A stretch of DNA of 64,000 nt from an uncultured Gammaproteobacteria bacterium (lineage in GTDB: Bacteria > Patescibacteriota > Patescibacteriia > Magasanikbacterales > GWA2-37-8), in the NCBI GenBank assembly GCA_964641245.1, contig CAZXML010000005.1, positions 2,831 to 66,830 of the forward strand. The letters are read 5' to 3'. The position numbers are program-made. Shown in pieces: positions 54,001 to 57,000 of the stretch (the first letter of the stretch is position 1; each line of letters begins with the position of its first letter).

Positions 54001-57000
54001 TTTTTAATGACCTCCAAAGTTCCGTCGGTTGAAGCTCCGTCAACCACGACATATTCCACATTGCCGTATGTTTGGTTTAATACGCTAAGAATTGTTTCTT
54101 CTATATGCGTGATATCATTTTTAACCACGGTAATAATACTGACTACCGGCTCACCTTCCACCGGCTCCTTTTTCCAACCTTCCTTCCGTAATCCTCCGTA
54201 ATTTTTAAAATTTGTCACAAAAGAACCCTCGGCTTTTTTAAGAAGCCTGGTTGTAGAAAAAACTTTATCCTGATTTAAGCCGGTAATTTCATTCATAAAC
54301 GAAATGAGTGAGTAAAATATTTAGCTTGCTAAAATATTTTCGAGCGAATGAGTTTATATCCGTAGATATAATTTACACCATGTTAAAATCTTTTTTCTTT
54401 ATTAAGTATACCGCCCACAAAAGAGTCCAGACAAACAACATTGCGCTGCTGAAGGCAAAAGTATAAGCGGCGCCCATAACACCATACAAAGGAATAAAAA
54501 TAAAATTACCGATAATATTGATTAGCAATTGGAAAAAACAAAAAATGGTGGAAATTTGTGTACGGTTAAATACCATGATTGCGAGTGAAAAAGGAATGGC
54601 CAAAACATTAAGCAGGGTGCCGTAGGCCAGCACAACGTACAAGGGCATGGCCGCGTCATATTTGTGGCCAAAAAATAAACTAACCAGATACCGCGAAGGG
54701 TACACAAAAATTGCGACAATTAACGTACCAACAAGAACCCACTTAAACGCTCTTTTAACAAAAGCAACCAACTCTGTTTTGTTTTTTAAACCGCTTATTT
54801 TCGGCATTAACACAGAAGAAATTGAACTGGAAATAACCGGAAAAAATTGAAGCAATTGCCAGGCGACGGTAAAAATTGCCACATCCACCAGCCCCAGATA
54901 ATGGCTGATCATAATTTGATCTACGCGGCTGGAAAAAATAGCCATCAACGATGTGATGGTAAGCCAAAAACTAAACCGCGCCAATTGTGAATGTAGTTTT
55001 TGTTTTATTTCGCCGTCAATCTCTACCGTTGTAAAATTTTCCGGCAGAACTTTAAAGTTTATAATAAATAAAATCCAAGGAATAAAAATATAAACCGACA
55101 AGTAGGCGAACACGCTCTTCACACCAAACGCTATGAGTAGCAGAGCTGCCGCCAAACGTAAAAAACCCTTCAGCGACTGAACGGAGGCGTTGTATAAAAA
55201 TCTTTGGTTCGCCTGTAAAAAAGTCGCTAAAAACCCCAATAGGATTACACCGCCCAGGCCAAGAGATGCAAAGGCTAAGTAGGGGCCAACCTTGACCTGG
55301 CCGTATACATATTTTGCTATCGGATAAGACAAGACAAACAAACCGATAGTGAGCACCCACGCCAGAGAAACCCGCCAACGCCAAATTGTTTTAACAAGTT
55401 GTTTTAATTTATCCGTTTGATTTGTCGCGATATAATACGGAGCAAACCTTAATAATCCGGCATTTAAACCAAAATCAGACATTTCCGCCACAACACTCAA
55501 AGCCATGACTGAAAGAGAAAAAATTCCGAACAACTCCTGATTTAAAGCCCTGGCCAAAGCAATGTTAAGCGCAAACAAAGAAAGGCCGTTTACCAACGAA
55601 CCAACCGCCACATAGCCTGTTTGATGCAGGGCCTTTTTTTTGATTATCATTTTTATCCACTCTATAATTTTCATAATCTATTCTTTGATAACATCATTTT
55701 TTACAGTGGCGCTAAGCCCGGATACACCCAGCCTGTTAATCCGGCGCGTAAACTTTTTTGGAATGAATTTGACCAACGTATTCTCTATGGCATAACCGAT
55801 AAAAGCAAATGGCAGGCCTTTGATTAAGGCGGCTTTCCATGTTTTCATCATTTCTTTCCGAAAACCATACAGACGGGTGGAGATATAATCATCCTGCATA
55901 AAATGAAGCACAAAACCGCCGTCACTCCAGCTGTTTAAATCAAACTCGTCGCTTAAAAAATATCGGCCGCTTATCTTAAAATAAAAATCCGCCTCCTGTT
56001 TTAAATACTTCAAGGTGTAAAGAAGCATGGACGTTTCACCCAGACTTTTGAAGGTACTGTCGCAAGCCAATCTGACCAATTTTTTGTCTCCCAAATACAA
56101 ATACTGGTCCGCCTTTTCCTGCAAATCGGCCGGCAGATCGCGCAAACCGGCTTCTATCAAAACCACTTTTGCCTGCGGCGCTTTTTGGCGGATTGTGGCT
56201 ATGGTATGCGCGGTTTGTTGCATGCGTTCTTCCGGAGTAAATATGGACCGCGCTCCGCCGTAGGTTACTTTTTTATTTTCTTTTGAATAAATAACGGAGG
56301 TGATTAGAAAACAATATGAAGATGGTTTGCCGTCGTTTAATTTTTCATTTAGCGTAAAAAAGGAAACTGCGGAAACGATAATTTCGTACGGAAAAATAAA
56401 TAAAACCCTGTACAATTGTCTGGCTAGAAAAGAAAACGGGTTGCTTAAAAAATTATTTAAAACTTTTTTAATTGTTAACCGCGCCTTATTCAACATAAAA
56501 ACTAATCCTTAAACAGATAAAAAGCGGCGGCATCCCCGTCATTTTGTTTATTTAGCGCCTTCGCCCTGTCTCTAAAATCCTGTATTTGTTTTTTTGTAAA
56601 TAACGATTCGTCATATAATTCACCATAGGATCTTTTATCGCGCAACGGGATGTCTTTTAAATACTGTTCGCTTCCCCAAAACTGCAGGTCCCACGAATCA
56701 AAAACCGTATCTACCCGGTTAAAACCAACCTGCGCGGACAATAGTTTCATGCTGGCAACGGTATGAATAAATAAATGCCGGGGCGCGTCCAATTGCACCC
56801 AGTTAACGCTGTATGTTTTCCAGGCATAAGTACCGGCCACAGGCACACGGACCAAAACGCACCCTCTGCGCTTTAACAAAGAATACGCCTGCTTAAGAGC
56901 TTCTTTCTGGTTTGGCATGTGTTCCAGGGCGTGGTTAAAAATAATCAGGTCGTATTGGCCGGCAACTTCATTTAGTGATTTTTTATAAACCGTAACCCCG

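Follow-up and report, generated by a model that had tools for sequence, protein, structure and literature searches.

What fills the gap between two adjoining glycan genes in a genome whose intergenic spacing is usually only 1 to 20 nt, and why do much the same bases recur, in the same order, before other genes of the locus? The stretch analyzed here (the window: 64,000 nucleotides of contig CAZXML010000005.1, from an assembly labelled as an uncultured Gammaproteobacteria bacterium) holds a Wzx-type flippase gene (54373 to 55674, minus strand) followed by a glycosyltransferase family 2 (GT2) gene (53307 to 54296, minus strand), and the 76 bases between them (54297 to 54372), read toward GT2 from the wzx stop codon to the GT2 start codon, are TAA-AT-TATATCTACGGATATA-AA-CTCATTCGCTCG-AAAATATTTTAGCAAGCTAAATATTTT-A-CTCACTCATTTCG-TTT-ATG. 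An initial annotation had divided this gap into ordered blocks, namely a hairpin (here H), a box (box1), a near-palindromic operator (P), and a leader running into the ATG, in which we distinguish a second box (box2) and TTT, and the sequence is exactly as it was quoted there. The blocks were taken for the signature of a dedicated glycan regulon or, alternatively, for a domesticated miniature repeat. As argued below, the module is probably, though not securely, a mobile palindromic repeat of mosaic build, akin to miniature inverted-repeat transposable elements (MITEs) and bacterial interspersed mosaic elements (BIMEs), co-transcribed with its neighbors, secondary in function, and widespread in Magasanikbacteria-like members of the candidate phyla radiation (CPR).

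The complete module (54291 to 54374, minus strand) reaches from the wzx stop codon (54373 to 54375) to the GT2 start codon (54294 to 54296) and scores 86.3 bits (E = 2.6e-18) with covariance model R1, which was built from 48 related modules and scanned across the window. Read toward GT2, H (54354 to 54371, minus strand; TTATATC-TACG-GATATAA, which RNA folding resolves into a 7-bp stem and a UACG loop) begins 2 nt past the wzx stop codon and is followed by box1 (CTCATTCGCTCG; 54341 to 54352, minus strand), which is conserved, pyrimidine-rich, and unpaired. P (54314 to 54340, minus strand) belongs to the subtype we call P2, AAAATATTTTAGC-AA-GCTAAATATTTT with a single bulged T, and is delimited by an exact duplicate and by covariation across the family; box2 (CTCACTCATTTCG; 54300 to 54312, minus strand), likewise conserved and pyrimidine-rich, ends 3 nt before the ATG. 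A flanking inverted repeat, or helix P1, was delimited by RNAalifold and pair counts: its 5' arm TATAAAC (54352 to 54358, minus strand) overlaps the 3' arm of H, and its 3' arm GTTTATG (54294 to 54300, minus strand) includes the GT2 start codon.

The case for mobility rests on orthologous junctions, which we compared in contigs (designated by L numbers, like the other loci below) fetched through homologues of two window proteins at graded identity, a sampling that is unbiased with respect to the module. Between wzx and GT2, only 3 to 4 nt (TAA-AAG-TATG or TAA-AA-TATG) are found in L158, L160, and L161, whose GT2 proteins are 77%, 73%, and 72% identical to that of the window, where the same junction reads TAA-AT, then a 76-nt module ending in TTTCGTT, and then TATG. 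The focal copy was evidently inserted into an ancestral wzx-GT2 spacer of 3 to 4 nt, immediately 5' of the TATG start. The junction between an epimerase gene and the aminotransferase gene degT is empty (AAAATAA-TATATG-AGC) in L155, although the protein is 99% and the DNA 86 to 88% identical, and also in L156, L157, L150, L151, and L152; it holds one clean 79-nt module in L149 (92%), with the same unusual box2 variant as in the window; and it carries a 174-nt insert in the window itself (AAAATAA-TATATG-GGCTACGCC...CATTTCAAT-TATG-AGC). Compared with L149, the window has in addition a degenerate module nested between TATA...TATA (59566 to 59639) and a 20-nt GC palindrome within box1. A module lies between two epimerase genes in L149 but not in the window or L155; the radical SAM-methyltransferase junction has a full 91-bit module in L158 and a 31-nt remnant in the window; and the GHMP kinase-SIS junction measures 5 nt in L161, whereas the window has H and box1 fused to TATG. 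These five junctions, comparable between filled and empty states, amount to presence/absence polymorphism, which means that a discrete unit comes and goes as species diverge. In the DNA, the module behaves as one separable piece that can be acquired, lost, doubled in tandem, cut short, or nested, and the miniature-repeat alternative of the initial annotation is the part of its reading that has held, since the unit is inserted and deleted as a whole at orthologous junctions and also forms tandem arrays. Its density is uneven, with one module in 52 kb of seven unbiased relative loci and three in 13 kb of L149.

The edges of the unit are simple. Every empty site begins with TATG, and every filled site has TAT(A) at its left and TATG at its right edge, a pattern compatible with target duplication of TA/TAT and equally with microhomology. 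In the consensus H, the 5' arm includes the former ATG, with GGC-TAA directly after it; the resulting mini-open reading frame (ATG-GGC-TAA) was considered as a functional start-stop element and discarded, as many H variants (TATAGGGGC) lack the ATG. Likewise, box2 is not a target-site duplication, given that box1 and box2 consistently differ from each other in all copies.

Within the window, the 27-mer AAAATATTTTAGCAAGCTAAATATTTT occurs exactly twice, at 54314 to 54340 (minus strand) and 59674 to 59700 (plus strand), with no occurrence expected in shuffles. The recurrence before degT noticed in the initial annotation is therefore genuine, the two copies having 51 nt in common at 90% identity, the longest inverted repeat of the window, yet the insert proved more complex than described. 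It opens with a hairpin H0 (TATATGGGCTACGCCGCATATA; 59544 to 59565, plus strand) directly 3' of the epimerase stop codon (59541 to 59543), whose TATATG is, judging from the empty site in L155, the former start context of degT. There follows a degenerate tandem module (59558 to 59642, plus strand; 24.5 bits, E = 0.004, with model R1), consisting of a hairpin H1 (TATAGGGGCTAAAGCCCATATA), a decayed box1, the hairpin CATAAAAGTAAACTTTTATG, and a decayed box2, which had been overlooked, was found by the covariance model, and is not present in the ortholog L149. The degT-proximal module (59642 to 59720, plus strand) then combines a box1 (CTCATTC) broken by a GC palindrome, the P2 copy at 59674 to 59700, the box2 variant ATTCATTCATTTCA (59701 to 59714), and ATT-ATG (start codon at 59718 to 59720); it scores 33.8 bits for 59669 to 59713, and the clean orthologous module in L149 scores 75.7 bits. 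The interrupting sequence CCTGCCTGCCGGCAGGCAGG (59651 to 59670, without strand) is a perfect GC-rich palindrome of 20 nt that is not in the orthologous L149 module, which suggests a second class of small palindromic insertions.

A third, diverged module precedes the gene for a 508-amino-acid membrane protein (63161 to 63282, minus strand; 46.3 bits for 63161 to 63268), in line with the earlier description of a copy with insertions at this place. It comprises H (TATATGGGCTAAAGCCCATATA; 63261 to 63282), box1 (63247 to 63258), a long, irregular P with insertions, a subtype also found in L018, and box2 (63170 to 63182). ATA stands in the ATG position here, and the ATG of the open reading frame (ORF; 63151 to 63153) comes 13 nt further on. 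We also observed that the loop of this H (TATATGGGC-TAA-AGCCCATATA, minus strand) contains a TAA (63271 to 63273) which is the stop codon of a DegT-like ORF (63271 to 63906), so that the last codons of this gene are encoded by the repeat.

Two further copies are fragments. Before the SIS gene gmhA, H (ATATCTACGGATAT) and the box1-like TCTATTCGCT are fused directly to TATG, with P and box2 missing (46848 to 46875, minus strand). This truncated copy, already listed in the initial annotation, is real, as the 17-mer ATATCTACGGATATAAA occurs exactly at both 46859 to 46875 and 54353 to 54369 with none expected by chance, and its shape is what a deletion joining the TTCG motifs of box1 and box2 would leave. 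The weak copy proposed at 50035 to 50093, before a methyltransferase gene, stands in part only: the remnant CATAT..CTCATTCATTTTA (50025 to 50055, minus strand) is module-derived, its covariance score not being significant alone (E = 1.1) but a full module occupying the same junction in L158, whereas the P-like AAAATATTTTAGAGC belongs to the radical SAM gene, forming the conserved 3' end of its coding sequence, and is also found in L158. In addition, TTTATTTCGAATATG (41330 to 41345, minus strand), before the gene at 39650 to 41329, resembles the 3' end of box2 plus NNT-ATG and may be a decayed remnant, although the covariance model is not significant there. The string CTTATTCGCTCG at 17784 to 17795 was rejected as an in-gene chance match, 3.2 such matches being expected at up to 2 mismatches.

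How far does the module extend beyond this contig? We searched for it in two complementary ways. First, a 20-nt core of the P palindrome was scanned against GTDB representatives, one genome per species, and yielded 27 loci in about 12 metagenome-assembled genomes (MAGs), 26 of which carry the whole module with the ATG at a fixed distance; the 27th, from Methylococcaceae, lacks the module and serves as a chance control. Second, metagenome contigs were searched with the boxes only, in the form CTCATTCRYTCR-N18-36-YTCAYTCAYTTCR with a free gap, which gave at least 120 loci in more than 100 contigs and, after removal of TTCA/CTCA microsatellites, 102 non-redundant modules among the matches listed; in this set, the boxes are constrained by the search pattern itself. 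With P-core retrieval, which leaves the boxes free to vary, conservation per box position is 77 to 100%, and the two retrievals thus validate each other: the boxes are conserved when P is the bait, and P is hypervariable yet paired when the boxes are. An alignment of 48 modules (A1) gives the consensus TATATGGGCT..C.CATATA-WW-CTCATTCGCTCG-GAAATAATTAA...TTAATTATTTC-N-CTCACTCATTTCG-AA-TATG. The family module is about 76 to 80 nt long, with CTCATTCRYTCG as box1, CTCAYTCATTTCG as box2, and a P stem that is usually GAAAT..ATTTC, and ends in NN-TAT followed by the G of ATG, or by A where another module follows. The ATG lies exactly at +4 to +6 after box2 in 72 of the 102 modules, and 17 have ATA instead, mostly where the next H of a tandem array begins.

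Such arrays, of the form (H-box1-P-box2)n, include three modules in L012 before a gene that resembles thymidine kinase genes (named from its N-terminal sequence), two or more in L017, identical tandem duplicates in L053 and in L137, and the stretch 59544 to 59717 of the window. P is inverted relative to the boxes in L002 and L027, and elsewhere unrelated palindromes fill the same slot. Each MAG carries 3 to 5 loci with the exact P2 core, and the window has 4 to 5 copies in 18 kb. The claim that H always abuts the upstream stop codon applies to the window, where H is close to it in all copies, but family-wide to only about half of the modules, the others being placed after promoters or other modules. 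Copies confined to one contig and randomly oriented would, according to the initial annotation, have spoken for a passive repeat; instead, copies are widespread, and each module examined is oriented like the gene that follows it.

These downstream genes leave little room for a dedicated glycan regulon. They are unrelated in function (uvrA, ssb, enolase, atpG, adk, and dprA, besides genes for an NTP-transferase, a beta-CASP nuclease, an alcohol dehydrogenase, and a BlaI-like repressor), and the atpG module in L020 sits within the conserved atpA-atpG operon. The expected enrichment upstream of glycan genes fails as well, as nearly the entire 64-kb window consists of glycan genes and about 50 of these lack the module, which is found only between 46.8 and 63.3 kb. 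The JUMPstart/ops element is likewise a recurrent conserved sequence in the leaders of glycan clusters, but our module is not glycan-specific and forms a hairpin mosaic at individual gene starts rather than a single operon leader; the ops octamer GGCGGTAG has two matches in the window, both within genes and at chance level.

The window organism is Magasanikbacteria-like by its FtsW protein, which is 80 to 83% identical to those of "Parcubacteria group bacterium Gr01-1014_13" and Ca. Magasanikbacteria. A module-bearing MAG titled "Udaeobacter" encodes an FtsW that is 76% identical to that of the window and ranks among the Magasanikbacteria matches, so its label is probably wrong, and since the MAG is evidently mislabelled, we claim the family for one CPR lineage and not for several phyla. 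Module-bearing MAGs with the titles "Candidatus Udaeobacter sp." and "uncultured Gammaproteobacteria bacterium" comprise L003, L005, L009, and L017 (DATION01) and, besides these, L004, L006, L008, L010, L013, L016, L019, L021, L023, L024, and L027, and the Gammaproteobacteria labels raise the same suspicion. In a viral contig collection, the box pattern had two matches, both by chance inside coding sequence and without a module, so that the family was not seen in this phage collection with this pattern. Rfam 15 has no match at the gathering threshold in the window, and sub-threshold hits around the element and the L012 array are at chance level. The literature libraries searched yielded no paper with the box or H strings and no report of repetitive extragenic palindrome (REP) or MITE families in the CPR; within these libraries, the family appears to be undescribed.

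Covariance analysis, which the initial annotation had proposed for the hairpin, revealed that the stems covary and that the arms of P are kept paired while their sequence varies. Among modules retrieved by boxes alone, P comes in 82 different sequences whose median identity is 59%, yet in a fixed register from the boxes, 81% of the P positions form Watson-Crick pairs, compared with 54% (maximum 58% in 1000 trials) when arms are swapped between modules. The central block is therefore a near-perfect palindrome, as had been described, but not an operator for a dimeric transcription factor, since pairing is conserved rather than half-site sequence. H always has TATA..TATA stems with a variable interior, and its stem reaches at least 5 bp in 73% of modules versus 14% in shuffled upstream sequence. 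Helix P1, found by RNAalifold, pairs TATAxyC with Gy'x'TATG. One strand runs from the 3' arm of H through two variable positions to the first C of box1, and the other from the last G of box2 through two more such positions into the start codon. In 69% of 91 modules the variable bases are complementary at both positions, a rate that permutation lowers to 17% (at most 33% in 2000 trials), and the combinations observed are TT/AA, AT/AT, TA/TA, AA/TT, TG/CA, and AC/GT. Taking P1 and P together, 94.8% of cells are paired versus 77.8% in shuffles (none of 500 shuffles reaches the observed value), and the covariation score is 0.406 versus 0.118 for shuffles and at most 0.09 for slid registers.

The kind of change within the stems is informative. 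Almost all changes are two-sided Watson-Crick swaps, with essentially no G-U intermediates, and isolated mismatches comprise 18 A:C and 7 G:T, a count over whole hairpin folds being confounded by the over-represented P2 subtype. Both the two-sided swaps and the A:C excess would fit maintenance of palindromes at the DNA level better than selection on a sense RNA. In the focal copy, H and P fold, and P1 is not part of the minimum-free-energy structure; folding thus predicts that H and P should form in RNA and that P1 alone is weak. As H and P1 have an ATATA strand in common, the two are mutually exclusive.

The module is, in all likelihood, transcribed as part of an mRNA leader or an intercistronic spacer, given that canonical promoters lie upstream of it in L011, L012, L016, L018, and L149 (TTGACA-17-TAnnnT or an extended -10, in divergent or first-gene contexts). 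A promoter and terminator scan of the window copies found no sigma70-like and no terminator-like site within modules, and across the family, a sigma70-like site of at least 9/12 falls inside only 3% of them; H in the window copies is followed by AACTCATTCG and not by a T-run. At the first epimerase gene of L149 (3819 to 3960), the promoter TTGACA-17-TAAACT is followed by a leader that is essentially box2 alone (CTTATTCACTTATTCATTTCG-AAT-ATG). The leader of the focal module does lack a Shine-Dalgarno (SD) motif, as had been noted, but this is no peculiarity of the element: an SD-like tetramer (at -21 to -5) precedes only 6 of the 58 ORF starts of the window, and 49 of the 58 have a T at -1, giving a TATG-type context.

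In favor of a mobile repeat, these observations can be combined into a tentative life cycle. The module would spread by copy-in targeting TAT(R), through an enzyme or by template switching, and might disappear again when the flanking TAT(R) repeats slip against each other, aided by the hairpins. With genes 1 to 20 nt apart and no reliance on SD sequences, a block of 80 nt should persist only if it brings its own initiation region and stop codons; in such tightly packed operons, only copies that place box2-NNT before the ATG would survive, which would explain the strict orientation, the fixed ATG distance, and the conserved boxes. Stop codons in the hairpin loops, which halt read-through, could contribute to the tolerance of insertion. 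There is a hint, from the box2-only leader in L149 and from the conservation of the boxes in old orthologous copies, that box2 might be functional by itself. While H and P would fold in the RNA, the weaker P1 could pair the AUG with the 3' arm of H and so modulate translation or mRNA stability; a switch between H and P1 that masks the AUG is conceivable. Any influence of this kind would be a by-product, or else a later domestication, rather than a control circuit peculiar to the glycan genes.

Several observations weigh against mobility as the whole story. We identified no transposase or recombinase, with no whole-genome protein search for RAYT or TnpA having been made, and the termini lack long inverted repeats, TAT(R) being the only flanking repeat, so template switching or gene conversion is a possible route of insertion. 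Sense-strand P folds are slightly more stable than antisense ones (71 versus 24). Six orthologous gene pairs with 51 to 86% protein identity have a module in both members, with the boxes intact and the stems different or compensated (e.g., GAAT..ATTC versus GAAG..CTTC in L079 and L148). Such old copies would point to long-term purifying selection, for which a purely selfish element has no need, and the strict co-orientation together with the exact ATG spacing (72/102) is less expected of a transposon than of a functional leader. Moreover, an exact 27-mer common to species whose FtsW proteins are only 76 to 83% identical requires either selection or recent horizontal spread. The orthologous pairs with intact boxes point to more than selfishness, and it is for this reason that we regard the mobile repeat as probable only and take an RNA switch selected by the host seriously as a minority view.

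Among known elements, the closest in architecture would be BIMEs and the closest in behavior MITEs such as Correia elements. Like the REPs, REPINs, and BIMEs of enterobacteria and pseudomonads, the modules are short intergenic palindromes with conserved linkers, arranged in mosaics and tandem arrays, located between operon genes and beside stop codons, co-transcribed, with hairpin arms kept complementary; they may also resemble them in having many copies per genome (here 3 to 5 exact P2-core loci per MAG). Whereas a REP is a repeated palindrome, here it is the linkers (boxes) that are conserved most strongly, the hairpins being hypervariable; no motif of the GTAG kind stands out beside the hairpins; the module is strictly polar toward the start codon, with the ATG exactly 3 nt after box2; and it is common to many species of one CPR lineage, whereas REPs are species-specific. 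We know of no RAYT gene for the family. With the Correia elements of Neisseria and other MITE-like repeats (ERIC, RUP, BOX, and the RPE of Rickettsia), the module shares its small, non-coding nature, its presence/absence polymorphism at orthologous sites, an A+T-rich target (TA in Correia elements, TAT(R) here), co-transcription with hairpins in the mRNA, and a modular build as in the A-B-C units of pneumococcal BOX. It differs in having no long terminal inverted repeats, only the 7-bp TATAxyC/Gy'x'TATR flanking the core, in its position immediately 5' of the start codon in one orientation, and in the single-stranded state of its conserved boxes; nor do we know of a cognate transposase. TIGR arrays, which consist of 5 to 15 tandem 36-nt units with two non-complementary spacers beside a Nop-domain tas gene (PMC12045711), were rejected as a model, as the units here measure about 76 to 80 nt, occur singly or up to three in tandem, have self-complementary variable parts, and precede unrelated genes.

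The most serious competitor, which we consider unlikely but far from negligible, is a structured RNA leader selected by the host, acting as a translational switch or as the binding site of a global factor, with mobility secondary. P1 would close box1-P-box2 into a long stem-loop whose boxes form an internal loop bound by a protein, an RNA, or the ribosome; it would sequester the AUG while H competes for ATATA, and the unfolding of H by the ribosome terminating upstream would toggle initiation. Conserved single-stranded boxes between covarying helices, one of which pairs the start codon, fit this idea, as do the mutual exclusion of H and P1 through their common strand, the position downstream of promoters and aimed at the gene in every case examined, the retention at orthologous genes with compensatory stems (e.g., L079 versus L148), and the box2-only leader after a canonical promoter in L149; furthermore, a genome without SD sequences needs some other initiation signal. 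The same layout, an AUG-pairing helix competing with an upstream hairpin and a conserved internal loop between covarying stems, is known from riboswitches and RNA thermometers that sequester the start codon. What sets the module apart from these, and counts against an RNA switch in general, is the incoherent set of downstream genes without common function, the variable presence among close relatives at one junction, the virtual absence of G-U pairs from the covariation with A:C mismatches exceeding G:T, and the lack of an Rfam match. P1 itself, moreover, consists of 6 A-U-rich pairs and one U-G around an internal loop of about 12 x 13 nt and is not in the minimum-free-energy fold of the focal copy.

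It is also tempting to speculate, if a shade more doubtfully still, that the module is a mobile translation-initiation cassette, in which the pyrimidine boxes tether the ribosome through pairing with 16S rRNA or through a ribosomal or RNA-binding protein and the alternation of H and P1 couples upstream termination to SD-independent initiation or reinitiation. The TURBS (termination upstream ribosome-binding site) motifs of caliciviruses pair with 18S rRNA, and the box stretches CGAAAUGAGUGAG and CGAGCGAAUGAG are candidates for a corresponding pairing here; 16S rRNA was sought in the fetched loci for complementarity to the boxes, and none is present in those loci. If true, such a cassette would represent a novel and transposable way of selecting start sites in a bacterial lineage without SD sequences and would explain how modules land in tightly coupled operons without killing the downstream gene.

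Decidedly less probable is a recombination site resembling integron attC, whose folded single strand a site-specific recombinase would recognize, so that genes would be exchanged at module boundaries and cassettes reshuffled in the variable glycan loci. The topology of an outer stem, an unpaired center, and a variable terminal hairpin, conserved in structure and free in stem sequence, recalls attC, as do the single polarity relative to genes and a mismatch bias that would suit a folded bottom strand; in addition, a conserved 4-gene block sits in an otherwise mosaic locus, and a rearrangement breakpoint falls at the P loop before the L149 GT2 ortholog (see below). However, modules precede core housekeeping genes in conserved operons (atpA-atpG, ssb, adk, and enolase), stand in tandem without intervening genes, and are inserted without change of the flanking genes. 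In contrast to attC, the unpaired center is highly conserved in sequence and the AAC/GTT core is not: RYYYAAC/GTTRRRY is not conserved, and xy is AA/TT in only 7 of 91 modules, TT/AA, AT/AT, and TA/TA being commoner. No integrase gene was seen in the loci, in which no systematic search was made and intI itself was not searched for, and we know of no integrase or attI context for the module.

A terminator (H) joined to a promoter (box1-P-box2), possibly for a non-canonical RNA polymerase or sigma factor and producing a short SD-less leader, seems highly improbable. H adjoins stop codons in about half of the modules, and the ACTCAC in box2 recalls T7-type promoters, a resemblance we take to be superficial. 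Against these points, H has no T-run and no terminator-like site in the scan; in L012, as many as three modules separate a canonical promoter from its gene, so that H cannot terminate efficiently; sigma70-like sites are as rare as stated above; and P, where a -10 element would have to lie, is not conserved in sequence. Finally, that P serves a dimeric transcription factor as its operator, with the module marking a glycan regulon, is hardly credible and is already contradicted, for although the palindrome is near perfect, the exact 27-mer is kept across species and at several genes, and all window copies fall in the glycan locus, the half-site sequence is free family-wide while pairing is kept, P is flipped or gives way to an unrelated palindrome while the boxes stay the same, the genes downstream have no function in common and about 50 other glycan genes of the window do without the module, and the module lies downstream of promoters and is missing from orthologous junctions of relatives.

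CPR (Patescibacteria) genomes have a reputation for being streamlined, with few repeats and few regulators. A repeat that is abundant, constrained in structure, and inserted exactly at start codons within operons offers a handle on genome rearrangement in these organisms, whose glycan loci are mosaics; the family may show how genes are translated where Shine-Dalgarno sequences are hardly used, may reveal an enzyme that moves hairpin DNA, and appears to be a lineage marker. In practice, modules make "intergenic" gaps longer, can give rise to spurious small ORFs such as ATG-GGC-TAA, and can mislead the calling of start codons, and the covariance model can flag them in MAG annotation.

The surroundings of the modules are themselves variable. 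Compared with L149, L151, L152, L155, and L159, the stretch from 57400 to 61650 is a conserved 4-gene block (epimerase, epimerase, DegT, and a 265-amino-acid protein) with 86 to 88% nucleotide identity to L155, and the transferases and exporters flanking it differ in each relative, with Wzx here and an ABC-type Wzm/Wzt pair in L149. On the opposite strand of L149, the GT2 ortholog retains only the right half of P2 plus box2 before it, which places a rearrangement breakpoint at the center of the palindrome. Base composition also varies along the window: the G+C content rises to 0.49 at 6001 to 8000 and to 0.53 at 38001 to 40000, compared with about 0.40 elsewhere, the second rise falling in the ORF at 37308 to 39095, which, like that at 39650 to 41329, encodes a long protein with an inositol-monophosphatase-family domain. 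Both high-G+C stretches are possibly foreign DNA.

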